A DNA stretch of 64,000 nucleotides from Clostridia bacterium (lineage in GTDB: Bacteria; Bacillota; Clostridia; Oscillospirales; CAG-272). The position numbers were made by a program, and so were the translations under genes. Of this stretch, positions 1,738 through 34,663 are shown one piece after another. The DNA lies in the NCBI GenBank assembly GCA_017456005.1, contig JAFTLJ010000028.1, forward strand, positions 5,774 through 69,773, read 5' to 3'. A model generated the notes under the pieces. It had not been told where the DNA came from and did no database searches. It saw only the letters and a program-made list of their open reading frames with translations. Within the stretch, counting starts at the first letter, position 1, and every line of letters starts with the position of its first letter.

Positions 1738-2592
1738 TTGGTAATACGCGCAAAAAGAACATCGGAACATTTGGCGCTCGCACTTTTTGCGGGAATTTTG
1801 CTGTATTTTGCACATTCTTTCCTTGTTAACGAAGTGTTTATTCCGAACGAAGTGATTCGAAGCATAGCGTCTGCCGCGCTTTCCGTCTTGCAGCTCGGCG
1901 TGCCTGCGCTCATGTTTTATGCAATGCAAAAGCGCGCGGGGTTTGAAGAGCCGAAGTTGAAAAAAAACCGAGAGGGCTCTGCTAAGTATAACGTGACGCT
2001 CGCCTTCGGCGGCTTTTCCGCAATATTTGTTTTCGGCTTGCTGTATTCTGCGGCATTTCCCATGGCTGCCCCTGCCATAAAGGTAACCGGCACGCTTTCT
2101 TTCGCCATAAATGCCGCAAGCTCGGTGATCATACCGGCTGTTTTTGAAGAATACCTTTACCGCAGGCTTATTTGCAGGGAGCTTACCATTCACGGCGGCG
2201 CTTTTGCTGTTATAATTTCCGCGCTTCTTTTCGGCCTTGCTCATTTTTCTTTCTATACCTTTCCGTATGCCTTTATATGTGGGCTCATACTCGGATTTGT
2301 ATACCTGAAAACAGGCTCGGCAAAATACACCGCGGCAATTCACCTTGCGAACAATCTGTTTGCATACGTTCTTGCCATTATAGGCACGAAAATATCTGCG
2401 CTGGATTACACAAACTTCGTTATGCTGCTCGCTATCGCGCTAAGTGTAATGGCTCTCGGCGCTTTCTACACGGTTATACCGAATATGAATAAATTCGCGC
2501 TTTGCGAAAACGGAAACGTCGCTTCCTCTGCGTTTCTCACGTTTTCCATGGTGGTATACCTTGTCTGCGCCGTGCTTATGAATTTTATATGA
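1738..2592 (+). CDS. CPBP family intramembrane glutamic endopeptidase (CAAX protease-like)
   Basis: Multi-TM protein with EEYLYRRL and LLFGLAHF motifs. I moved the start to TTG 1738, 7 nt after the AAAGGGGA Shine-Dalgarno. The track start at 1666 remains possible. Confidence 0.75.
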   Translation: MVIRAKRTSEHLALALFAGILLYFAHSFLVNEVFIPNEVIRSIASAALSVLQLGVPALMFYAMQKRAGFEEPKLKKNREGSAKYNVTLAFGGFSAIFVFGLLYSAAFPMAAPAIKVTGTLSFAINAASSVIIPAVFEEYLYRRLICRELTIHGGAFAVIISALLFGLAHFSFYTFPYAFICGLILGFVYLKTGSAKYTAAIHLANNLFAYVLAIIGTKISALDYTNFVMLLAIALSVMALGAFYTVIPNMNKFALCENGNVASSAFLTFSMVVYLVCAVLMNFI

Positions 2593-3098
2593 CGGAAAAA
2601 ACGAACGATACTGAACAAACCCTGCACTATATGCAGCTTGCCATAGAGGAAGCGAAAAAATCCCTCGCCATAGAAGAAGTGCCCGTGGGCGCCGTGGTCG
2701 TGTGCGAAGGGGAAGTGGTGGCGGCGGCATTTAACACGCGCGAAACAGAAAAAAACGCCATACGCCACGCAGAGGTCACGGCTATTTCCCGCGCCTGCGA
2801 AAGGCTGGGCGGCTGGCGGCTGCACAAATGCGAGCTTTACGTTACGCTAGAGCCCTGCCCGATGTGCGCGGGGGCAATAGTCAATTCCAGAATAAAGCGC
2901 GTTGTTTACGGCGCGAAGGATACAAAAGCGGGTGCTTTCGGCACCGTGCTCAATCTAAACGACTTTCCGCTTAACCACAAGCCCGAAATTGCCCACGGCG
3001 TGTGCGAAGAGGAATGTGCCGCTTTGCTTTCTGATTTTTTCAAAATTCTTCGGGCAAAAAAGAATGCGACAAAAAAAGCCGATATACATACAAATTAA
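2589..3098 (+). CDS. tadA: tRNA adenosine(34) deaminase
   Basis: Zinc-deaminase motifs HAEV...PCPMCAG and overall TadA-like sequence. ATG 2589 overlaps the upstream stop (ATGA). Confidence 0.9.
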   Translation: MTEKTNDTEQTLHYMQLAIEEAKKSLAIEEVPVGAVVVCEGEVVAAAFNTRETEKNAIRHAEVTAISRACERLGGWRLHKCELYVTLEPCPMCAGAIVNSRIKRVVYGAKDTKAGAFGTVLNLNDFPLNHKPEIAHGVCEEECAALLSDFFKILRAKKNATKKADIHTN

Positions 3099-3287
3099 GG
3101 AAATAATTTGTATAACAGTGCATTTTTGGCGTGTAATGTGGCGTAAAATAGGTCTAAAATATGTTTGACTTTTAATATGCCATATGATATACTTAACTTA
3201 CAAAAACAAAAGGAAATTTTCCGTGCGGAGCACTCGTTTTTCACCTTGTAAAGCTCGGGGCGGAAGAAAAACAAAAGGAGAGAAAAA

Positions 3288-4607
3288 ATGAAAAGAAACC
3301 TCAAACAGATCTTGCTCGTATTCCTTGCCCTCGCGGTTGCTGTTTCTGCAAGCACCTGCCTTTTCTCTTGCGGCAGAGAGTCTACGGCAAACACCACAGG
3401 CGACGTTATCCCCGGTATCATGTCCTCGAACAGCTCCACAAGCGGCACGGTAGACGCTTTGGGCGGCACGACCACAGGCACTGTACAGCCCCCCGAAGGC
3501 GGCAGCACGGGCGGCACAACAACACCCATAGTTACACCCCCCGGAAACGAAGGCGACTACATAAACCCCCTTACAGGTCTTAAAACCAATAATAAAGATG
3601 CTTCCACGCTCAAGCCCCTCGCGGTTATCGTAGATAACGTAGATGCGGCATACGCACATCAGACAGGCCTTACACAGGCAGACATTCTTTATGAAACGCT
3701 CGTTGCCCCCGGCATAACACGCTTTACGGCTCTTATTTCCGATTATTCCGCGCTCAAGGATATTTGCAATATCCGCGAGGCTTATATGGAACATATCGAT
3801 ATTGTGGGCAGCCACAACGCGGTTCTCGTTGCTCACGGCGGTGCTTCCCACCTCGGCGATTTTGTTTCCGTTGCGGCGGCGCGCTTTGGCGGCGGCTGGA
3901 ACGAAAACCTCCAGAAAAATACATACGGATATATCAACACCATGAAGGATATCGCTTTCACGGCTGAAGGCGGCGAAAGATACGGCACTATAAAATACTA
4001 CAAGGACGACGAAACCTACCGTAAGGACATCGGCTTCGATACGCTTCTTACCTCCTCTGCTGTTGCGGCTATCTTCGGCAGCAAGGCGAGCGCGTTTGCG
4101 CAGTCCGGTGCTACGGAAAAGGGCACGGCACAGTCCTTTGCATTCGTAGACCTTACGGAAACAAAGGTTATGAACGGCGCGGAGGCAAACGAAGTTAAGC
4201 TTTCCTTCACAATGGATAATTACAGCGGCACAAAGAGTGTTTCCTACGTTTACGATGCAGAGCTCGGTATGTACCTGCGCTACCAGGGCGCAAGCAACAA
4301 GGCGCACAAAGATTCCGTTACGGGCGCACAGCTTGCCTTCACAAACGTGCTCACGCTCTTTACAGACGTTACAAGCTCTGTTGCGGCAGACGATGCTGTG
4401 GTTACCTCTACAGCCGTTGTGGGCGAAGGCACGGGCTATTACTTCTACGGCGGCGAGGCTGTGGAAATAAAATGGTCCAAATCCGCTTGGGACGGTGCGC
4501 TCACACTTACCGATAAAGACGGCAACGCGCTCGAGCTTGCACGCGGTACAACTTACGTTGCATACCTCGACAATACGAACACAGCAAAAGCGGTAAGCTT
4601 TAACTGA
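3288..4607 (+). CDS. DUF3048 (YerB-like) lipoprotein
   Basis: Signal peptide with lipobox LFSCG and a low-complexity T/G/P linker. The segment PLAVIVDN...ADILYETLVAPGITRFTALI resembles DUF3048 proteins. Confidence 0.65.
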   Translation: MKRNLKQILLVFLALAVAVSASTCLFSCGRESTANTTGDVIPGIMSSNSSTSGTVDALGGTTTGTVQPPEGGSTGGTTTPIVTPPGNEGDYINPLTGLKTNNKDASTLKPLAVIVDNVDAAYAHQTGLTQADILYETLVAPGITRFTALISDYSALKDICNIREAYMEHIDIVGSHNAVLVAHGGASHLGDFVSVAAARFGGGWNENLQKNTYGYINTMKDIAFTAEGGERYGTIKYYKDDETYRKDIGFDTLLTSSAVAAIFGSKASAFAQSGATEKGTAQSFAFVDLTETKVMNGAEANEVKLSFTMDNYSGTKSVSYVYDAELGMYLRYQGASNKAHKDSVTGAQLAFTNVLTLFTDVTSSVAADDAVVTSTAVVGEGTGYYFYGGEAVEIKWSKSAWDGALTLTDKDGNALELARGTTYVAYLDNTNTAKAVSFN

Positions 4608-5785: not shown

Positions 5786-5824
5786 AAGTTCCCACAAACC
5801 GTTTGATTGGTCTGTGGGAATTTT
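5786..5824. terminator. Bidirectional hairpin between the DUF559 cassette and the convergent regulator gene
   Basis: Stem TTCCCACA / TGTGGGAA flanked by A-rich and T-rich runs. Confidence 0.6.
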
Positions 5825-5883
5825 ACGTTATGGTGATTTCTCCGATAAGAACATCACGCATTATGGGGTGCATTTTTTGCTTT

Positions 5884-6543
5884 CTATTCCGTTTTTATTG
5901 TGTATCCGATGCCTCGCACGGTGGAAATGAGCTTTATGCCGAACTTTTCGTCCAGCTTTTCGCGCAGGTAGCGCACGTAAACATCCACTATGTTCGTGTC
6001 GGTATCGTCTTTTTCCCAAATGGCCTTCGCCGCTTGCGCGCGCGTTACGGTGCCGCCCTTATTCTTGATGAGGTAGAGCAGTAGCGCAAATTCGCGCTTC
6101 GTGAGCTCCACGGTTTCGCGCTTGTAGGAGACCGTGTGCTCCTTTTCGTTCAGAATGAGGGAATCCGCCGCGCTTTTGCGGTGCTTTGCCACACGCACGC
6201 CGAAATCTGCCTCCTCGCTTTTTTCAAAGAAAGAGGAAATGAAGCCGGTTATAGAGAAAGGGCGCGTGAAAATTCGGAAACCTGCGGCTATTTTCGGCGC
6301 GACCTGCGAAAGTATCTCGGGATAGCCGAAAAGCAGCACCTGAGTGCCCTCAAGCTCTGCTGTGTCCGCCGGCATTGCGGCGAAAATTTCCGCATCGAGC
6401 ACAGTAAAATCCGCACAGGAGATTTCTTTTCTCGTTTCCTCTGAAAAGCTTTCTGCCACGGAAACGTGCGGGCAGAAAGCGGAAATTTCCAAATACAGCA
6501 TTCGGGCAAAAATTTTATCTTTTGTCAGTATGAGCACTTTCAT
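5884..6543 (-). CDS. OmpR-family winged-helix regulator with a degenerate (pseudo-)receiver domain
   Basis: The C-terminal LTKREFALLLYL...VDVYVRYLREKL...TVRGIGY is an OmpR/PhoB-type DNA-binding domain. The N-terminal receiver lacks the acidic DD pair (MKVLILTKDK), and the conserved Lys position reads TRPF. Confidence 0.7.
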   Translation of the reverse strand: MKVLILTKDKIFARMLYLEISAFCPHVSVAESFSEETRKEISCADFTVLDAEIFAAMPADTAELEGTQVLLFGYPEILSQVAPKIAAGFRIFTRPFSITGFISSFFEKSEEADFGVRVAKHRKSAADSLILNEKEHTVSYKRETVELTKREFALLLYLIKNKGGTVTRAQAAKAIWEKDDTDTNIVDVYVRYLREKLDEKFGIKLISTVRGIGYTIKTE

Positions 6544-6562
6544 AACAGTTTTGCTTTCTTAT

Positions 6563-6593
6563 ATAATAATTCTGCATTTTTCATTCTGCATTC
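6563..6593 (-). repeat. Heptad-periodic GCAGAAT-type repeat (copy 1, minus orientation)
   Basis: The minus strand reads GAATGCAGAATGAAAAATGCAGAATTATTAT. It lies immediately downstream of the parC-like stop, in the same orientation as that gene. Confidence 0.7.
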
Positions 6594-6597
6594 GGCA

Positions 6598-8811
6598 TTA
6601 CTTTTTTAGTGTTCCCGGGGCGGCGGGGATTTTTGTTTTGCGAAGCCCTGCCGTTTCAGGGTATTCTTTTGCAAAATCCTTTAGCGCGAATGCGACTTCA
6701 TCGTCTTTTTTGAGCGCTATGACGGTGGAGCCGATGCTCGTACGCGTTGTCTTAACGGGTAAGAGCTTGGTGTTCACTATAGCGCCCTTGCCCGCTTTTG
6801 TGCCTATCAGCATTTCGAAAGGCTCGCTTTCGTAGATTGCGGCGGCAAGCGGTGCGGCGTCAGAATATGCCGCCACGAGCTTTTTGCGGTTGCCCTTCGT
6901 TTCGTAAGAGGAAACAGGTATCTTCACGCCCTTGCCGTTTGCAAAGATGTAGACGATATTGTGTGTGGGCTCGTATTTTTTGAGCGACTTCATAGCCACT
7001 ACCTTTTCGCCTGCATCGAAATCGAGCTTGGCGGGCACAAATTCGCCGAGGGAGGAAGCCTTCACCTGCTCAAATTCGCAAACGCGGGATTTATATATCT
7101 GCTGTTTGTCGGTTATAAAGAGTATTTCGTCTGCATTTTCTGCGTCTTCTTCGAAAATTACACGGTCGCCGTCCTTCAGCTTGTGCTCGTCGCTGCCGCG
7201 CAGGGTGCTGGCGCGCAGGGAATTGTGCGTTATCTTTTTGAAGAAGCCGTCGCGTGTGAGCACCAGGCGTACGCCGTAGTTTTCCACGTGGTTTTCCTCT
7301 GTATAGTCGGCGATATCATCCTCGAAAATGAGGCGAGTTTTGCGCGGTATTGCGTATTTATCTTTTATTTTCTTCAGCTGCTTTGCAATGTATTTTTTCA
7401 GCTTCTTTTCCGAGCCGAGTATGGAGCGCAGCTCGTCTATTTCCTTTTGCAGGTTTTCTATTTCCGCAATACGCTCTAAAATGTATTCGCGGTTTAGGTG
7501 GCGCAGCTTTATTTCCGCGATATATTCCGCTTGTACCTCGTCGAGGTTGAAGCCGTTCATAAGGTTGGGTACAACGTCCTTTTCCTTTTCGGTTTCGCGC
7601 ACGATCTTTATCGCTTTGTCTATATCGAGCAAAATTTCGCCCATACCCATAAGCAGGTGGAGCTTTTCGTTCTTCTTTTCGAGGTCGAAGCGAAGTTCGC
7701 GGCTCACACACGACATACGGAAGCGTATCCATTCCGTAAGTATTTCGCGCACGCCCATTGTGCGCGGCGTGCCGTCCACGAGAATGTTGAAGTTGCAGGC
7801 AAAATTATCCTGCAAGGGCGTTTTTTTGAAAAGCTTTGCCATAAGCTTTTCGGGGTCTGTGCCGCGGCGAAGATCCAGCGTTAGCTTGAAGCCGTGCAGG
7901 TCTATTTCGTTGCGCGCGTCCGTAACCTCGCGCAGCGAGCCGTCTTTTATCATATCCGTTATCTTTTTGAGTATAAGCTCTATTGTTGTGGAATATGGGA
8001 TCTCCAGAATTTCTATGCAGTTTTCCGCTTTGTCGTATACGTAGCGCGCGCGCAGGGTAAAACTGCCTTCGCCCGTTTCGTAGATGTGGCGGAGCTTTTC
8101 ACGGTCGTATATAATGCCTGCGCCGCCGGAAAAATCGGGCGCTTTTATAATATCGAGCAGCTCTTCCGTGGTGGTTTCGGGGTTATCGAGCAGCGCTATC
8201 GTGCCGTCGCATATTTCGCCGAGGTTGAAGGAGCATATCTTGCTCGCCATACCTACGGCTATACCCATATTGGGCGAAACGAGCACGTTCGGGAAAGCCG
8301 TGGGCAAAAGAACGGGCTCCTTCATCGTGGCGTCGTAGTTATCCGTCATTTCCACGGCGTTTTTATCTATGCCGCCGAAAATTTCATTGCAGAAGGTGTC
8401 CAGCTTCGCTTCCGTATAACGGGAGGCGGCGTATGCCATATCGGAGCTGTACTGCTTGCCGAAGTTACCTTTGGAATCTACAAATGGGTGGAGCAGTGCG
8501 CCGTTGCCGCGTGTCAGGCGCACCATGGTTTCGTATATGGCGGCGTCGCCGTGGGGGTTTAGCTTCATCGTGGCGCCCACGATGTTCGTGCTTTTGGTGC
8601 GTGCCCCTGTTAGCAGACCCATTTTGTACATCGTGTAGAGCAGCTTTCTGTGCGATGGCTTGAAGCCGTCTATTTCCGGAATAGCTCGGGAAACTATTAC
8701 CGTCATAACGTACGGCATATAGTTTTTCTCTATCGTTTCCGTTATGGGTTGCGGAGTTATGGGCGCGGGGGGGAGTTCTATTTTAACATTGTTTTTTCTT
8801 GTTTTTGCCAT
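6598..8811 (-). CDS. parC: Type IIA DNA topoisomerase subunit A (ParC/GyrA family)
   Basis: 737 aa with the GyrA/ParC N-terminal domain, including the AASRYTEAKL catalytic-Tyr motif. It follows the subunit B gene. Confidence 0.8.
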   Translation of the reverse strand: MAKTRKNNVKIELPPAPITPQPITETIEKNYMPYVMTVIVSRAIPEIDGFKPSHRKLLYTMYKMGLLTGARTKSTNIVGATMKLNPHGDAAIYETMVRLTRGNGALLHPFVDSKGNFGKQYSSDMAYAASRYTEAKLDTFCNEIFGGIDKNAVEMTDNYDATMKEPVLLPTAFPNVLVSPNMGIAVGMASKICSFNLGEICDGTIALLDNPETTTEELLDIIKAPDFSGGAGIIYDREKLRHIYETGEGSFTLRARYVYDKAENCIEILEIPYSTTIELILKKITDMIKDGSLREVTDARNEIDLHGFKLTLDLRRGTDPEKLMAKLFKKTPLQDNFACNFNILVDGTPRTMGVREILTEWIRFRMSCVSRELRFDLEKKNEKLHLLMGMGEILLDIDKAIKIVRETEKEKDVVPNLMNGFNLDEVQAEYIAEIKLRHLNREYILERIAEIENLQKEIDELRSILGSEKKLKKYIAKQLKKIKDKYAIPRKTRLIFEDDIADYTEENHVENYGVRLVLTRDGFFKKITHNSLRASTLRGSDEHKLKDGDRVIFEEDAENADEILFITDKQQIYKSRVCEFEQVKASSLGEFVPAKLDFDAGEKVVAMKSLKKYEPTHNIVYIFANGKGVKIPVSSYETKGNRKKLVAAYSDAAPLAAAIYESEPFEMLIGTKAGKGAIVNTKLLPVKTTRTSIGSTVIALKKDDEVAFALKDFAKEYPETAGLRKTKIPAAPGTLKK

Positions 8812-12643: not shown

Positions 12644-12818
12644 TTGCAAATCTTAAATTTTATCATAAGTTTAAGATGGCGATAGCTTTGTTTGTACTGC
12701 CGAGCCGCAACGAGAATTTTGCTTTTTCCGCAAAAATACAGGCAAAAACAATATGGAAATCTATTTTGAGGAAAGTTCTTTGCCGAGCTTTCTTTCAAGA
12801 AAGCGAAGGAGAGGAAAT

Positions 12819-15800
12819 ATGGTTCATTTTATATACGGCAGAACGGGAAGCGGCAAAAGCGCCCATATGCTGGCGCACGCCGCAGAAACCGAAAATAAGC
12901 ATATTTTCGTGCTAGTTCCCGATCGCGGTGCCGTTATGGCAGAGCGCGCCTTCTCCTATGCGCCGAATGCGGGCGATATAGACGTTGTAACGTTCCGCAG
13001 GCTTGCGAACTTCGTTTTCCGCAAATATGGCGGTATATGCGAAAACTATATTTCGCGCGGCGCAAAAAAGGTAATGATGCACAATACACTCGCCGCGCTG
13101 TCGCCGCTTTTTGCCTCCAAGGGGGAGTTTTTCGAAAGCGATACCGCCGCGACGGAGAGGTTTATAAATATGCGCACAGAGCTTGCGCGCACCGCTGTAT
13201 CGCCCGAGGTTCTGGCGCGCGCCGCGGAGGCGTGCGAGGGCGAAACGGGCAAAAAATTTGCCGATATTTCCTTGCTTTTCACAGCGTTCGACGCCGAGGT
13301 GGGCGCACGCTTTGCAGACCCCGACGGAATTTTAGCCAAAATGAACGCACTTCTTGCCGAAAACAACTTTTTCGGCGGTTGCGATGTATATATAGATTCG
13401 TTTACATCATTTTCCAAGGAGCAGCTTAACACAGTGCGCGAAATTATGCGCACTGCGGAAAACGTGTATATTTCCGTGCCGTACGTGCCCGAGGAGGATA
13501 AGGAAACACCGTGCTTTTTCGGCATAGCCGACACGGCAAAGCGCCTTATTGATACGGCAGAGGCGGCACACGCCGAGGTTGGAGAAGCAGTACTGCTTTG
13601 CGAGCGCGGCAGGTTCCAAAACGAGGAGCTGGCTTTCCTTGCGCAAAATCTTTTTCCGGGCGGCGGCTACGCCAAGCGCACATATGAGAAAAAGCCGGAA
13701 AACGTGCGCGTTATGAGCGCCGCAAACACCTTTGCGGAGGCAGAGGCGGTGTGCCTCGATATAGCGAAAAAGGTGCGCGAGGGCGCCAGATACCGCGATT
13801 TTGCCGTTATCATACGCAACGGCGAAGCATACGCAGGCGTTATAGACGCGATGATGCGAAAATACGGCTTGCCGTGCTTTGTTTCGGGCAGAAAAGATAT
13901 AACAGAGCTTGCTTTTGTAAAATTCCTGCTTTCTGCGCTTGCCGTGTGCGAACGCGGTTTTGCACGTGAGCTGGTAATATCATATATAAAAACGGATTTT
14001 GCGGGTATTACGCCCGACGAAATCAACCTTTTTGAAAATTACGTGAGGAAGTGGAGCATAAACGGCGCACGCTTCTACGACGATTACGAATGGAATATGA
14101 ACCCCGACGGCTTCCGAGGGGAAATGACGGAAGAAAACGCAGAAAAGCTTGCCTGTCTTGCGGAAATACGCAGGCGTGCCGTTTTGCCCCTGCGCGCCTT
14201 CTGCGAGGATACGGCAGGCAGGCATACCGTGGTCTATTTTTGCGAAAGACTTTATAGCTTTGCCGTAGGACTCGGTGCGCCCGAAAAAATACTTGCCGAT
14301 GCCGAGCGCGCCGCGGCAGACGGCGACAAGGCGCTGGCCTCCGAGCTTTCCCAGCTTTTCGCTGTGTTCTGCGAGGTGCTGGATGCACTCGTTTCCGCCT
14401 GCGGAGAGGAGGAGGCCTCCCCTGCGGAGTTCACAGCGCTTTTGCGCCTGGTGCTTTCCGAAACGGATATAGGAAAAATACCCACCTCGCTAGATGAAAT
14501 AACCGTGTACGATGCGCAAGCAGGCGGTTATACAGAGGTAAAATACGCCTACGTTATGGGTGCTTGCGAGGGCACGTTCCCTGCAAGCGTAGAGGACGAC
14601 GGTGTATTTTCCGACAAAGAGAAAGAATTGCTTTTCCGCCACGGTATAGAGATAACCTCTACCGTGGAGCGCAGGCTGTGCGACGAGCTTTACTATTTCT
14701 ATGCCGCCGTGTGTGCGCCGAGCCGCGAGCTTTGCTTTACCTACCCCGTGTACGAGGGCGGCAAAAAAACGCGCCGCAGCCCCGCGCTCGTTAGCGTAGA
14801 GGAGCTTTTCCCCTTACTTTCGGAGGAACGGTTTGAGGACCTGCCGAAAGAAGCGCTTTTCGAGCGTGCCTCGGCAGCCTTCGAGCACGTTATGCAGGGC
14901 GGCGGCGAATATACACGCGCCCTGCGTGAATATTACGAGGGCATGCCAGAATACGCGGAAAAATTACGTTATATGGGCACGCCGCTTTCCTCCTTTCGTT
15001 TGCGCATACCCGAGGAGGAGGCGAAAAAGCTCTTTACAAAGGATATGCACACGAGCTATTCGCGGCTGGAAAAATACATTACCTGCAATTTTTCGTATTT
15101 CTGCGAATACGAGCTTAAATTAAAGGATAACTCCCCCGTGAAGTTTTCCGCCGTGGACGTGGGTAATTTCATGCACAAGATGCTGGAGCTTACCGTGCGC
15201 TATGCGCTCGCCAACCCCGACGCCACGGAGGAGGAGCTGCGCGAGAAGATACAAAAGGAATGCAGGCTGTACCTGGAGGCTGTGTGCCGCGGAAGCTACG
15301 CGGAAATATCGCCGAGGATAACACACCTTGCAAGCTACCTTTCATTTGCCTGCGAAAAATTTGTGGCGAAATTCCGCGAGGAATTCCGCGAAAGCCGCTT
15401 TACGCCGAAGGATTTTGAAATAACCATAGGCAAGGGGGCGGATATAGAGCCTATACGCCTACGCGACGAAAACGGCAGTGTGGAGCTGCGCGGTAAAATA
15501 GACCGTGTGGATACGTACGAGGACGGCACGGGAAAAATATACGTTCGCGTGGCAGACTACAAAACGGGCAGCAAAAAATTCGAGCTTAAAAATATAGAAG
15601 CAGGGCGCGACCTGCAGATGCTCCTTTACCTGTATTCCGTTTGTGAAAACGGGCAGAGAAGATACGGCAAGGATATAGCCCCTGCGGGCGTGCTTTACGT
15701 TTCCGTAAAGCCTGCGAGCGAAAACGTGGACCTCGGCGTGGAAACGCCCGAGGTGGCGAAAAACGGCAACAGCGGCCTGTTTCTGGATAATGACGAAGTT

Positions 15801-16040
15801 CTTGCGGCTATGGAGCCGAAGCTCGAGGGCAGGTTTATACCCGTGAAAGCGGGCAAGGGCGGCAAAAAACGCGGAAACCTTATGGCGGCGGAGGCTTTCG
15901 ACGAGCTTAAAAGCGCCGTTGTGGAAACCGTACTGTGTGCGGCAGGCGAGCTGCGCGCAGGCAAGGCAGATGCCGACCCGTGCGAGGCAAAGGCTTGCGA
16001 ATACTGCAAAATGAAAGCCGTTTGCCGAGCGAAGAAATGA
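12819..16040 (+). CDS. addB: Helicase-nuclease AddAB, subunit AddB
   Basis: N-terminal GRTGSGKS Walker A, and a C-terminal PD-(D/E)XK nuclease region with the Cys cluster CEAKACEYCKMKAVC. Start set to ATG 12819 behind a GGAGAGG Shine-Dalgarno. Confidence 0.85.
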   Translation: MVHFIYGRTGSGKSAHMLAHAAETENKHIFVLVPDRGAVMAERAFSYAPNAGDIDVVTFRRLANFVFRKYGGICENYISRGAKKVMMHNTLAALSPLFASKGEFFESDTAATERFINMRTELARTAVSPEVLARAAEACEGETGKKFADISLLFTAFDAEVGARFADPDGILAKMNALLAENNFFGGCDVYIDSFTSFSKEQLNTVREIMRTAENVYISVPYVPEEDKETPCFFGIADTAKRLIDTAEAAHAEVGEAVLLCERGRFQNEELAFLAQNLFPGGGYAKRTYEKKPENVRVMSAANTFAEAEAVCLDIAKKVREGARYRDFAVIIRNGEAYAGVIDAMMRKYGLPCFVSGRKDITELAFVKFLLSALAVCERGFARELVISYIKTDFAGITPDEINLFENYVRKWSINGARFYDDYEWNMNPDGFRGEMTEENAEKLACLAEIRRRAVLPLRAFCEDTAGRHTVVYFCERLYSFAVGLGAPEKILADAERAAADGDKALASELSQLFAVFCEVLDALVSACGEEEASPAEFTALLRLVLSETDIGKIPTSLDEITVYDAQAGGYTEVKYAYVMGACEGTFPASVEDDGVFSDKEKELLFRHGIEITSTVERRLCDELYYFYAAVCAPSRELCFTYPVYEGGKKTRRSPALVSVEELFPLLSEERFEDLPKEALFERASAAFEHVMQGGGEYTRALREYYEGMPEYAEKLRYMGTPLSSFRLRIPEEEAKKLFTKDMHTSYSRLEKYITCNFSYFCEYELKLKDNSPVKFSAVDVGNFMHKMLELTVRYALANPDATEEELREKIQKECRLYLEAVCRGSYAEISPRITHLASYLSFACEKFVAKFREEFRESRFTPKDFEITIGKGADIEPIRLRDENGSVELRGKIDRVDTYEDGTGKIYVRVADYKTGSKKFELKNIEAGRDLQMLLYLYSVCENGQRRYGKDIAPAGVLYVSVKPASENVDLGVETPEVAKNGNSGLFLDNDEVLAAMEPKLEGRFIPVKAGKGGKKRGNLMAAEAFDELKSAVVETVLCAAGELRAGKADADPCEAKACEYCKMKAVCRAKK

Positions 16041-30007: not shown

Positions 30008-31477
30008 ATGAAATTTGAATGGAATAAAAAATATGCCCAAATAGCTTTTTGGGTATGCTTGGTCGTGCTTTTTACGGTTATATGCGTATTCTTTTTCTTG
30101 AATTACAATAACTTTGGGGCATACGCCAAAAAATTTATAAGTGTTTTAAACCCCATTTTTTACGGTGTGGTAATAGCCTACGTGCTGAATAAAATACTTA
30201 ATATATTTGAAAAAAGAATTTTTAAATTTTTAGATAAAAAAGAGGGCAGAGCGCGCCTTAAACGCACTCTTTCCATTCTCTGTACTTACGTAACGGTTAT
30301 CGCTTTTATCACACTCTTTATATGGCTTATCGCGCCGCAGGTAGTAGAGGGTATTACCGATTTGATAGTTATGATACCTTTCTATATAGAAACCTTTTCG
30401 GATTGGATATACAGTATCGGCGATTTGGACCCTGCGATTTCCGATATTATTATGAAGGGTATGGAATATCTTGAAAATATTTATAACATGCTCGGCGAAA
30501 TAGTGGCGACGGTAGTGCCACAAATTACGGAGTGGCTTGGGCAGACGGTAACGTTCCTTAAAGACCTTGTTATAGGCATTATCCTTTCCATATACTTCCT
30601 TATGCAGAAGGAGCGCTTTATAGCGCAGGGCAAACGCCTTTGCCGGGCTATTTTCCAGGATAAAGGCTATGGAAAAGCGGTTAAGCTCATAAAGGATATA
30701 GATAACTCCTTCGGCGGATATCTTATAGCGATGGGTGTGGATTCATTCCTTGTAATGTGCGAATGCTTACTGCTTTTCGGACTTGTCGACATACCTTACT
30801 ATCAGCTTATAAGCTTTATAGTGGGTGTTACGAACTTCATTCCTTTCTTTGGTCCGTTTATCGGTGCCATACCCTCGGCAATAATCATCTTTATCGCAGA
30901 CCCCATGACCCCGATGAATGTCATTATATTTATATTACTCATTCTCGTTATTCAGCAGATAGACGGTAATATAATAGCCCCCAAAATAATCGGCTCTCAT
31001 ATAGGCATTTCTTCCGTTTGGGTCGTTATAGCCGTTACGATTATGTCCGGCTTCTTCGGATTTATCGGTATGGTAATAGGCGTGCCCCTCTTCTCTGTGA
31101 TATACACGCTTATAGACGACGCTATCGCAAGCAGGCTGGAAAAGAAAAATTGCGATACGGAAATTTTCGATTTCTATTCCGAAGACAATATGGGTAAAAC
31201 GATGGAGATCGAAATAATGAAGGCGGAGGAGCGCAAGGCTCAGAACCCGAATTTCTTCGATAAATTTTTCAAGAAGTTAAAAGGCAAGGGCCGCCATGGT
31301 AAGCACAGTGCAGGCAAGCATCAATATGATGAAACCACCGTTACGGTACAAGAATTTTCCACAGAAGAATTTATGGCGAATTATGAAAGCGCTCTTGACG
31401 ATGTTACCGAATATGGCGCGGAAGATGAAGTGCCCACGGAAAAATACGAAGGCGAAGACGAAGCCTCTCAAAACTAA
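30008..31477 (+). CDS. AI-2E family transporter (PerM/UPF0118) with an acidic C-terminal tail
   Basis: Multi-TM protein with a conserved ..FIPFFGPFIGAIP.. segment and a ~110-aa hydrophilic tail. A+T-rich. Confidence 0.8.
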   Translation: MKFEWNKKYAQIAFWVCLVVLFTVICVFFFLNYNNFGAYAKKFISVLNPIFYGVVIAYVLNKILNIFEKRIFKFLDKKEGRARLKRTLSILCTYVTVIAFITLFIWLIAPQVVEGITDLIVMIPFYIETFSDWIYSIGDLDPAISDIIMKGMEYLENIYNMLGEIVATVVPQITEWLGQTVTFLKDLVIGIILSIYFLMQKERFIAQGKRLCRAIFQDKGYGKAVKLIKDIDNSFGGYLIAMGVDSFLVMCECLLLFGLVDIPYYQLISFIVGVTNFIPFFGPFIGAIPSAIIIFIADPMTPMNVIIFILLILVIQQIDGNIIAPKIIGSHIGISSVWVVIAVTIMSGFFGFIGMVIGVPLFSVIYTLIDDAIASRLEKKNCDTEIFDFYSEDNMGKTMEIEIMKAEERKAQNPNFFDKFFKKLKGKGRHGKHSAGKHQYDETTVTVQEFSTEEFMANYESALDDVTEYGAEDEVPTEKYEGEDEASQN

Positions 31478-31521
31478 ATAATATTCGGGCGCTCGCCGAA
31501 ATATGCGTGCGCCCGGCAAAC

Positions 31522-31596
31522 GCCCTCATAGTTAAATGGATATAACAAACCCCTCCTAAGGGTTAGTTATGGGTTCGATTCCCGTTGGGGGTGCCA
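31522..31596 (+). tRNA. tRNA-Arg (anticodon CCT), CCA encoded
   Basis: Hand-folded cloverleaf. Acceptor stem GCCCTCA/TGGGGGT (two G-U pairs). D arm GTTA-AATGGATA-TAAC. Anticodon arm AACCC-CTCCTAA-GGGTT. T arm ATGGG-TTCGATT-CCCGT. Discriminator G, then CCA. Total 75 nt. Confidence 0.85.
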
Positions 31597-31731
31597 GAAA
31601 AAAGCACTTGCGCAAAGGCAACTTCTTATAAGGAAGTTTAATTAAATTTGCTTTGCAGAAAACAAATAAATGACGCCGACAGGATATATGTCGGCGTTAT
31701 TTATTTCGTTCGATAAATTGGAATTTTATTA

Positions 31732-32358
31732 TTAGAATAATCCTCTGTTATATTTGAATTGCGCGTATAGGATAAAAACCAACCCAATCAGAATACCTAC
31801 ACCTATTGCCAATCCACTTGTCGCTATGTAACCTAACGCTTCTATAACGGCACCGGCAATGATTCCCACGCCTGCAATAAGCGTTCCAATACCGACGAAC
31901 ATACAATACACCTTTTGGTTCTCCTTCGTGACCTTACAGCGATTGTACCAATGGATCGTGCCGATATTTCCGCACATATTGAAGATACCGAGCAGTACAA
32001 AAATAACACCTAATCCTAACTGAACCAAGCTCTCTCGCAAAGATTCAATGAATATGAACCCCAATATAAACAGACCGATAGCGCAACCTGCCGCAAAACC
32101 AATGATGGCTTTTTTCTGTTGGTCAATAGTTTTATTCTTCGACACAAGGATTTCCTCATTGCTCTTGTTGGGGATAAGCTCGTCAATTGTAATGCCGAAA
32201 TAGTCGGCTAACAGTTGGAGTGATTCGTCACTCGGTAAGCCCAATCCGTTCTCCCATTTTGCAACGGCAGATCTTGAGATATGTATATCTGCTGCGAGCT
32301 TTGCTTGTGAGATGCCTTTTTCGCTACGCAGTTCTTTTAATTTTTCGGAAAATTCCAT
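31732..32358 (-). CDS. XRE-family HTH protein with a C-terminal multi-TM domain
   Basis: The N-terminal LKELRSEKGISQAKLAADIHISRSAVAKWENG motif is followed by about 4 hydrophobic helices. A+T-rich. Confidence 0.7.
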   Translation of the reverse strand: MEFSEKLKELRSEKGISQAKLAADIHISRSAVAKWENGLGLPSDESLQLLADYFGITIDELIPNKSNEEILVSKNKTIDQQKKAIIGFAAGCAIGLFILGFIFIESLRESLVQLGLGVIFVLLGIFNMCGNIGTIHWYNRCKVTKENQKVYCMFVGIGTLIAGVGIIAGAVIEALGYIATSGLAIGVGILIGLVFILYAQFKYNRGLF

Positions 32359-32579
32359 AGAAACACCTCCGTTCTTTACTGAACATATTTTATCATATTT
32401 TGGATTAAAAATCTACCATTTGAGGTGTTACTTTGATGGGGTGCGCTGTTACTTTTATAAATAACAACAAATTCTTATTTATCGCTCTGTTTCATCGCCA
32501 GTTTCGCCTTTGTATTACAAAGGCTTCGGGCAAAGCCCATACCTCTATTCAATATAACACAAATCAGCAGAGAAAGCAG

Positions 32580-32749
32580 AGTGATATTCCGACTTCGTCG
32601 GAGTGATATTATTGCTTCGCAATAGTGATATTGAAGCTTTCAGCTTCAGTGTTATTTAATTCGCCTCCAAAACTTGCGAAGCAAATATCACTCGTCGTAA
32701 GACGAATACCACTGCGAAGCAATAGAACTCGCCGCAGGCGAATAAAACT
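32580..32749. repeat. Word-plus-mini-hairpin array, block A (word AGTGATATT / AATATCACT, arms inverted)
   Basis: Left arm: three AGTGATATT words at an exact 22-nt spacing plus AGTGTTATT, each followed by a different perfect mini-hairpin. Right arm: four mini-hairpins, each followed by AATATCACT, AATACCACT, AATAGAACT or AATAAAACT. Confidence 0.75.
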
Positions 32750-32795
32750 GCCAAACCTCCTTATGAGAAGTTGGGCAAAGCAAGTGCTTTTTTCA

Positions 32796-32959
32796 ATGAA
32801 GCGCACCTGCGGTGCATGAAAAATGAAGCCGAGCTTCGCTCTATGAAGCGAGCCTTCGGCTCATGGAGAAGTTACTATGTGCTTCGCTTCATGTTTGCAT
32901 AGCAAACGCTTCATGCGAGCGTAGCAAGCGCATCATATCGGCGCAAGCCGATGCTTCAT
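32796..32959. repeat. Word-plus-mini-hairpin array, block B (word ATGAAGC / GCTTCAT, arms inverted)
   Basis: Left arm: three ATGAAGC words, each followed by a hairpin (gcaccTGCggtgc, gagCTTCGctc, gagccTTCGgctc). Right arm: hairpins (tttgCATAGcaaa, GCGTAGC, tcggcGCAAgccga), each followed by GCTTCAT or CATCAT. Confidence 0.75.
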
Positions 32960-32964
32960 AGTAT

Positions 32965-32996
32965 AAAAAAGCCTAACGCATGGCGTTAGGCTTTTT
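32965..32996. terminator. Bidirectional terminator hairpin (ridA 3' end / end of the hairpin-array region)
   Basis: AAAAAAGCCTAACGC-ATG-GCGTTAGGCTTTTT. Confidence 0.8.
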
Positions 32997-33069
32997 GTGG
33001 GTGAAATTCGTCTGTGTCAACTATAAGATGCCCGAAAATTGGGCTGTACATGGGGTTTTAGCGAATGGT

Positions 33070-33447
33070 TTATTCAACTTCTGCGATAACTTCTACTTCG
33101 CAAAGAACGTTCTTTGGCAACGTTTTTGCCGCTACGCAGGAGCGCGCGGGCTTGGAAACGAAATATTTGCCGTAGATTGCGTTGAATGCGGCGAAATCGC
33201 CCATATCGGAAAGGAAGCAAGTAGTTTTTACAACCTTTTCGAAGGATGTGCCTGCCGCTTCGAGAAGCGCGCCGATGTTTTTGCAAACCTGCTCTGTCTG
33301 TTCTTCGATAGTAACTGCTTCAACAGCGCCTGTGGCAGGGTTTATGGCAATCTGACCGGATGTGAAAAGCAAGCCGACCGTTATAATACCCTGGGAGTAG
33401 GGGCCGATGGCGTCGGGTGCATTTTTTGTATAGATAACCTTGGACAT
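33070..33447 (-). CDS. ridA: RidA family reactive-intermediate deaminase (YjgF/L-PSP)
   Basis: 125 aa with AP.AIGPYSQGI......SGQI...P.TG........EQT.Q...N...L..AG......VK...FL.DM.DF..N..Y..YF....PARS.V.V..LP..V..E...IA. Confidence 0.9.
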   Translation of the reverse strand: MSKVIYTKNAPDAIGPYSQGIITVGLLFTSGQIAINPATGAVEAVTIEEQTEQVCKNIGALLEAAGTSFEKVVKTTCFLSDMGDFAAFNAIYGKYFVSKPARSCVAAKTLPKNVLCEVEVIAEVE

Positions 33448-33463
33448 AGTAAACCTCCGTGTT

Positions 33464-34663
33464 TTACTGTATGATTTTGAAGCCTTCTTTTGTAAGGCTG
33501 TTTTTTATTTCTTCGATATGCTCGAAGCTCTTTGTTTCCATACCGAGGCGCAGGAAGCAGCCGTTTACTGCCTGTGCGTCGCCGTGCTCGTGGTGAACGG
33601 AAACAACGTTGCCGCCGCATTCTGCGATTATATGGGAAACCATTTCGAGCTGACCGGGCTTATCTATAAGCTCGATAACGATAGAGCAAGCTCTGCCGCT
33701 CTTGTGAAGACCGCGGTCTATAACGCGGGAAAGGATAGTAACGTCGATATTGCCGCCCGAAACGATGCAAACAACTTTTTTGCCCTCTACGGGAACTTTG
33801 CCGAACTTAACTGCCGCAACGGAAACAGCACCTGCACCCTCTGCGATAAGCTTCTGGTTTTCGATGAGGTGGAGTATAGCCGCGGAAATTTCGTCTTCTG
33901 TGACGGTTACTATTTCGTCTACGTATTTTTTGCAGTATTCAAATGTGTTTTCGCCCGGGGCTTTAACCGCGATACCGTCTGCAAAAGTGGAAACAGAGGG
34001 GAGCTTTTCGGGCACACCCGTTGTAACGGCGTTGTACATAGAGGGGGCCCCTGCCGCCTGAACACCGTATATCTTAACAGAGGGCTTGAGCGTTTTGAGC
34101 GCGTATGCCACACCGGAAATAAGCCCACCGCCGCCTACGGGAACAACAACTACATCTACATCGGGAAGCTCGTTGAGCACCTCAAGGCCTATTGTGCCCT
34201 GACCTGCGATAACGTCGTCATCGTCAAACGGGTGAATGAACGTATAGCCCAGCTCATCTCTCTGGCGGATAGCCTCTGCATAGGCATCGTCGTAAACACC
34301 GTCTACCAAGCAAACCTCTGCGCCGTAGCCTTTTGTGGCCTGAACCTTGGAAATAGGCGCGCCTGCAGGCAGACAGATTACGGATTTTATGCCCTGCTTC
34401 GTAGCGGCGAGGGCAACGCCCTGTGCGTGGTTGCCTGCAGAGCAAGCGATAACGCCGTGCGCTTTTTCTTCGTCGGTAAGCTGTGAAATTTTATAAGCAG
34501 AGCCGCGTACCTTGAAAGAACCCGTAAGCTGAAGGTTTTCGGGCTTCAAATAGAGCTTGCAGGAAAGTTCCGCGCTCATACGGGGCGCTTCTATAAGCTG
34601 TGTATGGCGCACAACGGGCTCCAGCACGCGCGCCGCATCGTAAACTTTATCTATGGTCAACAT
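33464..34663 (-). CDS. ilvA: Threonine ammonia-lyase (threonine dehydratase)
   Basis: PLP-fold SFKVRGA-type motif (GSFKVRGSAYKI), GNHAQGVALAA, and a C-terminal ACT-like domain. Start set to the ATG at 34663 behind GGAGG. Confidence 0.9.
   Translation of the reverse strand: MLTIDKVYDAARVLEPVVRHTQLIEAPRMSAELSCKLYLKPENLQLTGSFKVRGSAYKISQLTDEEKAHGVIACSAGNHAQGVALAATKQGIKSVICLPAGAPISKVQATKGYGAEVCLVDGVYDDAYAEAIRQRDELGYTFIHPFDDDDVIAGQGTIGLEVLNELPDVDVVVVPVGGGGLISGVAYALKTLKPSVKIYGVQAAGAPSMYNAVTTGVPEKLPSVSTFADGIAVKAPGENTFEYCKKYVDEIVTVTEDEISAAILHLIENQKLIAEGAGAVSVAAVKFGKVPVEGKKVVCIVSGGNIDVTILSRVIDRGLHKSGRACSIVIELIDKPGQLEMVSHIIAECGGNVVSVHHEHGDAQAVNGCFLRLGMETKSFEHIEEIKNSLTKEGFKIIQ

Follow-up and report, generated by a model that had tools for sequence, protein, structure and literature searches.

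The sequence analysed here, which we call the window, is a stretch of 64,000 nucleotides (nt) from the genome of a Clostridia bacterium (GenBank assembly GCA_017456005.1, contig JAFTLJ010000028.1). In it, a 710-nt intergenic gap separates two minus-strand genes, an XRE-type helix-turn-helix (HTH)/membrane gene (31732-32358) and ridA (33070-33447), the latter following ilvA. The gap is the site of two arrays, block A and block B, in which a short constant word alternates with variable, perfectly paired mini-hairpins, and the locus is a pair of elements of the Gut-1 class (RF01706), an orphan structured RNA of human and animal gut microbiota.

A first-pass annotation of the gap had described it as non-coding DNA made of such units, arranged in two inverted arms per block, and every word and hairpin that it listed was found in its place. 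The open reading frames of 57-65 aa that overlap the region are mechanical and none of them has any support, so that a coding reading was rejected. A 56-aa gene has been called at 32436-32606 (plus strand) in a public metagenome annotation, where it overlaps the outermost unit of the block A long arm (the 3'-most on the minus strand); it has no family match and is probably spurious.

Block A is a complete two-domain element on the minus strand (32578-32752), with a short-hairpin arm, a centre and a long-hairpin arm. The long arm (32580-32656), which is the left one in plus-strand orientation, carries the word AGTGATATT at 32580-32588, 32602-32610 and 32624-32632, that is with a spacing of 22 nt, and AGTGTTATT at 32648-32656; its hairpins occupy 32589-32601, 32611-32623 and 32633-32647. 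The short arm (32674-32749) has the mirror words AATATCACT (32684-32692), AATACCACT (32705-32713), AATAGAACT (32721-32729) and AATAAAACT (32741-32749), which are degenerate (AATAnnACT), and hairpins at 32674-32684, 32693-32704, 32714-32720 and 32730-32740. The mini-hairpins between the words are perfect. Counting its reverse complement, the exact 9-mer AGTGATATT occurs four times, always in this locus and nowhere else in the 64 kb. A further hairpin, GCCCAACTTC...GGAGGTTTGGC followed by CAGT (32750-32776, minus strand), abuts the 5' end of block A and is homologous to the hairpin preceding two of its relatives (L046 and L071; L numbers denote loci of the search described below).

Block B (32792-32962) is a second and more diverged two-domain element, on the plus strand. 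It is preceded by a small hairpin, AAAGC-AAGT-GCTTT, with a T-run (32777-32795), which lies directly 5' of CAATGAAGC in the position taken by a terminator-like hairpin in the relatives. The short arm (32796-32869) has ATGAAGC at 32796, 32823 and 32843, degenerate words at 32816 (ATGAAAA) and 32863 (ATGGAGA), and three short hairpins at 32803-32815, 32831-32841 and 32850-32862. After a centre, the long arm (32886-32959) has four words, GCTTCAT at 32886, 32908 and 32953 and GCATCAT at 32930, together with three long hairpins at 32893-32907, 32915-32929 (where the plus strand has G.A and A.A mismatches) and 32937-32952 (with a GCAA loop). The series closes with a perfect 14-bp hairpin at 32966-32996 that has an A-run before it and a T-run after it, an intrinsic terminator working in both directions, which ends the ilvA-ridA unit on the minus strand and, judging from its position, would also end a plus-strand transcript of block B. 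The two blocks, of about 175 nt each, stand head to head on opposite strands, 39 nt apart. Therefore the earlier view that block B follows the same plan is right about the architecture, with other words, but the blocks are not simply side by side. Oppositely oriented pairs of neighbouring elements were also seen in two other loci (L014 and L090).

We evaluated whether these arrays could be expected by chance. Between 32570 and 32965 there are 12 non-overlapping perfect hairpins with 130 paired nt, while 1000 dinucleotide-preserving shuffles of the same interval gave 4.6 +/- 1.8 hairpins and 41 +/- 16 paired nt and none of them reached the observed values; a comparison with shuffled controls was among the checks proposed in the first-pass annotation. 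The folding z-scores of 32480-33000 were -10.3 for the plus strand and -8.5 for the minus strand. Two metagenome samples, assembled independently of each other, have this intergenic sequence with 100% identity, which rules out an assembly artefact. Of the span first proposed (32480-32996), the arrays are confirmed, but positions 32480-32577 are a flank with two ordinary hairpins (32506-32524 and 32528-32538), outside both the repeated design and the family model.

Gut-1 matches and the wider family

At gathering thresholds the sole Rfam match in the window is a tRNA, and when matches were reported by E-value, families other than Gut-1 gave chance-level matches only. The Gut-1 model RF01706 matches the short arm of block A (32680-32750, minus strand) with 45.6 bits and an E-value of about 1e-7, the long arm of block A on the plus strand (32568-32636) with 37.8 bits, and the short arm of block B (32794-32874, plus strand) with 23.9 bits, all three below the gathering threshold of 50 bits. 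The cmscan alignments of the three arms span model positions 1-77, and the window contains three tandem hairpins with GUGAAAU-like linkers, the first of them after CAaUGAAAU, as in Gut-1.

Weinberg et al. (2010, Genome Biol 11:R31; PMC2864571) reported the Gut-1 motif on the basis of 43 sequences from human-gut metagenomes and rated it as a confident RNA, with nothing further said. Its consensus has three hairpins with CUUCG loops and GUGAAAU joins, and the published model covers 77 nt, that is one arm (PMC2864571). In the portion of the published Stockholm file considered here, the mirrored second arm is already visible in the flanks: one seed flank reads GUGAUAUU-hairpin four times, a centre, and AUAUCAC-hairpin four times, of which only three hairpins are annotated as the motif (PMC2864571). 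The same portion aligns some long arms on the opposite strand (for example BAAV01001911.1/1405-1625) and includes overlapping tandem matches 240 nt apart (BAAZ01000130.1; PMC2864571, supplementary file 95), suggesting that the curated model, as far as this portion goes, mixes both arms and both strands. In the literature searched we found no paper on Gut-1 later than 2010. The first-pass statement that no element of this design had been described thus has to be corrected, since one arm is the Gut-1 motif published in 2010; the design is already known, and the window copies are new, sub-threshold members.

To define the family beyond one arm, we searched one genome of each species for three GTGAWAT words and obtained 120 loci, mostly metagenome-assembled genomes (MAGs) of gut Clostridia; about 45 of them show the word pattern '+++---' and almost none '---+++'. 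A covariance model, R1, with 181 positions and seven hairpins, was built from 21 two-armed loci of gut Clostridia with the window left out. R1 matches block A on the minus strand (32752-32578) over model positions 1-181 with 122.9 bits (E=6.5e-29), and on the plus strand with only 38.2 bits. Among the loci searched it found 47 full elements, including that of block A's locus, and the family counts given below rest on this set unless another denominator is stated. The short arms of 12 elements pass the RF01706 cut-off, with 54-88 bits and on the same strand, 10 of the 12 lying in loci used to build R1; the nearest relatives of block A (L046, L071, L080 and L024) remain below it as block A does. 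From the full-length R1 match, block A is a diverged but clear family member.

For block B the R1 score is 9.4 bits, from the only full-length R1 alignment in that stretch, which is on the plus strand only. Its membership rests on the architecture and on two relatives, L264 and L331, that carry the same words in the same order. A metagenome scan for the words of block B gave mostly chance matches, about seven being real.

A conserved, covarying two-domain architecture

Read on the strand that has GUGAWAU in the short arm, an element starts after a terminator-like hairpin with CA(A/G)(C/U), a degenerate word W0 and hairpin 0, continues with words W1, W2 and W3, each followed by a hairpin (the last being hairpin 3), and then has a short linker and the 3' segment of a long-range helix that we call P1. 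The 10-11 nt of this segment are reverse-complementary to W0 together with the 5' half of hairpin 0. The words W'1, W'2 and W'3, each with a long hairpin after it, and a final W'4 complete the element. The arms are unequal, with spacers of 9-15 nt in the short arm and 15-19 nt in the long arm, and the centre measures 27-30 nt. Domain 1 is made of four short hairpins with a purine-rich GUGAWAU-type word and is closed by P1 (11-12 bp); domain 2 consists of four complementary words and three longer hairpins, whose loops are GNA or GNRA and which often contain a tandem G.A pair. In block A the 5' strand of P1 (AGGCGAATAAAA in plus-strand spelling, 32736-32747) pairs with 32655-32666 in the centre between the arms, 12 nt with 92% complementarity.

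The alignment of the 47 elements supports these helices. In the well-aligned local hairpins 89-95% of the cells are paired and every pair shows compensatory change, confirming the earlier observation that the stems differ and yet stay paired. P1 is paired in 95.8% of the cells, with compensatory change in 9 of 11 pairs. The word helices W1:W'3, W2:W'2 and W3:W'1 are paired in 91-96% of the cells, with compensatory changes mainly at position 5 (A/U), and W0:W'4 in 78%, with compensatory change in 4 of 7 pairs. Controls in which the 3' partner was slid by 1-3 columns gave only 33-49% paired cells against 88-90% observed, and the observed covariation score was reached in none of 500 shuffles. When no structure was supplied, RNAalifold on the 47-sequence alignment gave P1 and five local hairpins, and returned neither hairpin 0 nor the word ladder. 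This is a conserved, covarying two-domain family of about 180 nt, roughly twice the size of the published model. Four permuted relatives on metagenome contigs (L301, L308, L318 and L333) have the long arm first and then the short arm inside a P1-like helix; they are antisense to an adjacent tRNA gene, and all except L308, which has no U-run there, end in a word:word hairpin with a U-run.

The words themselves change from element to element, and in any one two-armed element both arms match. GTGAAAT/ATTTCAC and GTGATAT/ATATCAC occur across the family, ATGAAAT/ATTTCAT in L052, ATGAAGC/GCTTCAT in block B and seven metagenome relatives, and GGTTATATC/GATATAACC in Akkermansia. The complementarity of the arm words, noted from the window, is therefore kept whichever word an element uses. 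Since each word changes as a whole together with its partner, base pairing, or an inverted duplication kept in step, is favoured over a single protein that would bind the words of all elements.

One Akkermansia sp. MAG (L008) contains many word-plus-hairpin arrays with other words at 1900-3400 and 5800-7100. There, four GTGAAAT-hairpin units followed directly by four CGAGATT-hairpin units recur every ~440-500 nt, three one-arm arrays pass the RF01706 threshold, and two-armed GGTTATATC/GATATAACC arrays lie on both sides of a gene for a PF05635 four-helix-bundle protein.

The pattern of divergence also bears on a mobile origin, since the first-pass annotation had compared the arrays with Tn7/Mu ends or miniature inverted-repeat transposable elements (MITEs); in a similar way they could be a REP/BIME-like array served by a Y1/HUH enzyme. 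Y1 transposases recognise a hairpin plus a short flanking word, both of which are present here, the words are iterated in inverted orientation, and the elements abut hairpins of many different sequences. However, no transposase gene was seen in the window or in the inspected loci, the 64 kb hold one locus only, BLAST found no element in plasmid and phage collections, and among viral contigs only 3 of 100 pattern matches were real elements. The copies are not near-identical and dispersed but have diverged with compensatory changes (target-site duplications were not searched for), that is, as a structured RNA gene does, and the word ladder does not require a transposon-end organisation. We consequently regard this origin as extremely improbable.

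Strand, genomic context and possible action

The family has a strand bias. On the modelled strand G.U outnumbers A.C by 46:16 in the hairpins and by 19:7 in P1, and in 36 of 45 elements the fold of the sense strand is the more stable one, with a mean difference of 3.7 kcal/mol. One position of the first long hairpin is G.A or A.G in 12-13 elements and Watson-Crick in the remainder, and the mismatches counted in the long-hairpin arm of 28 elements, an earlier set, were purine-purine in 22 cases and pyrimidine-pyrimidine in 1. In the permuted relatives the same features fall on the strand that ends in the word:word hairpin and a run of 6-8 U. Judged in this way, block A belongs to the minus strand and block B to the plus strand.

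A small RNA (sRNA) could nevertheless be read from the opposite strand, with the long arm first, then the short arm, and the A-run/T-run hairpin as its own terminator, shared with the convergent tRNA gene. The hairpin beside the short arm is indeed a two-way terminator in tRNA-linked loci, and in the remaining loci, by our reading, a run of 5-8 U lies 8-16 nt past the hairpin on that strand; moreover long arms are aligned on it in the published seed, as far as considered here, and the mismatches of the word helices point the same way. Against this stand the G.U to A.C ratios in hairpins and P1, the positions of the tandem G.A, the less stable fold in 36 of 45 elements, the far higher Rfam and R1 scores of the other strand, and the fact that no consistent promoter was found beyond the long arm on that strand. 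An opposite-strand sRNA appears to us decidedly unlikely.

The position of the elements relative to other genes is also characteristic. In all 47 elements the preceding hairpin ends directly at the CA(A/G)(C/U) start. For at least 13 of the 47, ARAGORN detected a tRNA gene upstream, at a distance of 28-41 nt and on the strand of the element, and never on the opposite strand; by eye about 19 of 41 are tRNA-linked, a higher count because truncated tRNA 3' ends are then visible. At tRNA-linked loci the A-run before the hairpin and the U-run after it make a strong two-way terminator. One element (L118, 1941-2853, minus strand) ends an rRNA operon in the order 23S, tRNA, tRNA, 5S, tRNA, element, and in one locus the element comes after 23S-5S-tRNA-tRNA. 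The window itself has a tRNA-Arg(CCT) gene at 31522-31596 (plus strand), about 1 kb from the elements and beyond the XRE gene; it adjoins neither block, unlike the tRNA genes of many relatives.

This position raises the possibility of a fail-safe terminator or insulator, in which each GC-rich hairpin with a U-rich word would be a weak intrinsic terminator or pause site and the array would stop escaped polymerases before the next gene. A terminator always precedes the element and a promoter or gene comes next, the upstream operon often being a highly transcribed tRNA or rRNA one, and a terminator scan flagged 11 sites in 31400-33600 against 3.1 expected, 5 of them being array units. However half of the family has the word GUGAAAU/AUUUCAC and hence no usable U-tract, while P1, the complementarity of the words between arms, the GNRA loops and the tandem G.A would be superfluous for termination, and the two copies of the window are on opposite strands. 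A role as terminator array is, in our opinion, very unlikely.

Downstream genes are diverse accessory genes with no theme beyond PF05635 and two XRE genes. In 8 of the 47 elements (L015, L027, L030, L052, L071, L072, L114 and L117) the next gene encodes a PF05635/TIGR02436 four-helix-bundle protein, annotated as '23S rRNA intervening sequence protein', and lies about 50 nt past the last word on the strand of the element; the same neighbour occurs in Akkermansia. The loci had been selected by word pattern, and the count holds for elements found in that way. The promoter of the PF05635 gene has its -35 box touching the last word of the element. A second array beyond the PF05635 gene is absent in Clostridia and present only in Akkermansia, and a literature search on PF05635 gave nothing useful. 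In L061, shortly downstream of a tRNA-Asn gene, 2.5 kb of accessory genes lie between the two copies (171-417 and 2910-3156, 96% identical) of a 247-nt direct repeat made of hairpin, element and terminator. The idea of an integrase cassette at this locus was discarded, as no recombinase was found nearby.

Several of these observations would also fit an element acting as DNA, a long and imperfectly palindromic stretch bounded by a terminator and by the promoter that comes next, which would work as duplex or extruded single-stranded DNA and would not need to be transcribed. It could be a hotspot of recombination or insertion beside tRNA genes, offer a DNA-binding protein its sites in an array, or serve as a spacer with a topological or regulatory role. 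In 10 of 44 loci a good sigma-A promoter for the downstream gene starts 0-7 nt past the last word on the sense strand; this, the location at tRNA 3' ends, the variable accessory genes downstream, the directly repeated unit of L061 and the lack of a promoter belonging to the element itself are all in line with such a reading. Furthermore, C-GNA-G loops are the classic loops of stable DNA mini-hairpins, and each arm, read in its own ATWTCAC sense, has them, and the symmetry spans both strands. On the other hand, duplex sites need no compensatory changes in stems, no G.T-type wobbles and no fixed tandem G.A; the words differ between elements of one locus, so that one DNA-binding protein could not account for them all; neither an integrase nor a transposase was seen close to L061 or the window; and single-stranded DNA would fit the strand bias only if G.T pairs were tolerated. 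We consider a DNA-level element unlikely.

Our preferred interpretation, which we hold with moderate confidence, is that the locus carries two Gut-1-class elements active as RNA of the modelled strand, produced by read-through or processing, whose words zip domains or molecules. From the sequence comparisons, a single strand of the modelled polarity, as RNA, is the most likely active form. The element invariably begins right behind a terminator-type hairpin, which in many cases belongs to a tRNA or rRNA operon, and it lacks a promoter for itself; we infer from this that read-through or processing of the upstream transcript would yield the element RNA. The single-stranded words of both domains may then zip, within one molecule or between molecules, into a compact, multi-junction or multivalent particle, and the part played by the RNA would be structural, or that of a scaffold, and not the regulation of any one gene.

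A number of results weigh against this interpretation. Its main weakness concerns promoters and expression: a search on both strands around the 47 elements gave no sigma-A promoter ahead of the element on either strand and no consistent promoter driving it, only those of downstream genes. Moreover, the hairpin ahead of an element is in many cases a strong terminator, and past the last word a terminator follows in only about 6 of 44 elements. For either block of the window, read-through would have to cross the antisense of the other block, which lies upstream of it. The GTGAAAT/CGAGATT arrays of L008 have no complementary arm. The mismatches of the word helices favour the opposite strand (A.C 47 against G.U 20), and the loop types are mirrored between the arms (UUC/UGC/UAC against GAA/GCA/GNNA), which fits a symmetry of two strands, or of DNA, better than an RNA of one strand. 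Nor can a single nested fold contain P1, hairpin 0 and the word ladder together: hairpin 0 and P1 are mutually exclusive and P1 crosses the ladder, implying either that the fold switches or that the word pairing is a tertiary or pseudoknot contact. The folding energies of block A (-73.6 kcal/mol with P1 forced, -72.6 with the ladder forced, -83.4 for the minimum free energy) do not choose between the folds. The ladder of junctions proposed in the first-pass annotation is thus supported only in part, by the pairing of three of its four rungs, but P1, which is better supported, cannot coexist with it in a nested fold.

The RNA interpretation can be extended to a picture of assembly that is tentative and, taken jointly in all its parts, unlikely. 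According to it, Gut-1 would not be a three-hairpin sRNA of 77 nt but a two-domain RNA of ~180 nt with a swappable order of domains, in which domain 1, closed by P1, would show three or four words, and domain 2 would offer four complementary words between hairpins bearing GNRA loops or G.A pairs. By zipping, the words would bring the domains together as stacked four-way junctions, or they would link molecules into higher-order RNA assemblies, possibly with the PF05635 protein, and the particle, having no promoter of its own, would derive from read-through of tRNA/rRNA operon terminators.

Some further observations concern the surroundings of the arrays. Just upstream of the XRE-type gene start at 32358, GTTACTTT is directly repeated at 32427-32434 and 32448-32455, 21 nt apart and inside a 17-nt repeat (82% identical); these copies are a candidate operator for the repressor-like XRE-type protein. 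A run of seven short perfect hairpins without a constant word, at 14329-14467, falls inside a 1095-aa reading frame (12753-16040, plus strand) and is probably a chance or coding feature. A generic detector of at least three consecutive hairpins, which had picked up this run, was discarded as too noisy, with 11 arrays in the window against about 5 in Markov shuffles.

Significance and comparison with known systems

The locus and its relatives suggest that the curated Gut-1 model captures only half of the element and mixes both strands. The relatives supply features that can be tested, namely P1, the complementarity of the words, the permuted form, the position after a terminator and a recurrent protein neighbour, and in making an orphan gut RNA testable lies the main value of the finding. 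A corrected model would allow annotation in thousands of Clostridia genomes and would make the role of Gut-1 directly approachable. Should it prove to act as DNA, the element would represent a structured spacer of an unusual kind at tRNA 3' ends.

Compared with other repetitive systems, a CRISPR array needs identical direct repeats of 24-48 nt with spacers of similar length, while here the constant part is 7-9 nt, the variable part is a palindrome of 7-19 nt, and the arms are inverted. The 22-nt spacing of three words recalls plasmid iterons; these, however, are identical repeats of 17-22 bp beside a rep gene or origin, whereas in the window only 9 nt are constant, each block has a word different from that of the other, and ridA/ilvA and an XRE gene lie alongside. 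An array of intrinsic terminators would have GC-rich hairpins, each with a U-tract directly behind it; five units of the window are flagged as such, and the GUGAAAU/AUUUCAC half of the family lacks the U-tract. The REP/BIME sequences of enterobacteria are short extragenic hairpins with a conserved flanking word, in alternating clusters, typically after the 3' ends of genes. The sequence of a REP hairpin is conserved genome-wide, while in the window the hairpins differ and only the word is constant; moreover, by words and by R1 matches there is one locus per 64 kb, and no RAYT-type gene was seen.

Among RNAs, CsrB/RsmZ and those bound by TRAP or HutP iterate a short motif 4-8 times with regular spacing among hairpins. 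In elements of the window type, instead, the word changes with the element and has its complement in the same element, suggesting base pairing and not the site of one protein. ROOL and GOLLD are large 'ornate' multi-hairpin non-coding RNAs of bacteria, often near tRNA genes, and the present family would resemble them in its multi-hairpin non-coding design, supported by covariation and often found beside tRNA genes. It is much smaller (~180 nt), modular and repetitive, has no Rfam match to them and is rarely found in viral contigs.

The comparison with Gut-1 itself shows both differences and likenesses. The window copies score below the cut-off of the published model, and block B uses a different word. 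In the parts of the paper and seed considered here, the second, long arm, P1, the complementarity of the words, the permuted form, the position after a terminator and the links to tRNA genes and PF05635 are not annotated. What window and motif have in common is the series of three or four short hairpins with CUUCG-type loops, the GUGAAAU/GUGAUAU joins, the preceding CA(A/G)U and the occurrence in gut Clostridia, and the published seed flanks, in the portion considered, carry the same plan, with the word GUGAUAUU and a mirrored second arm.

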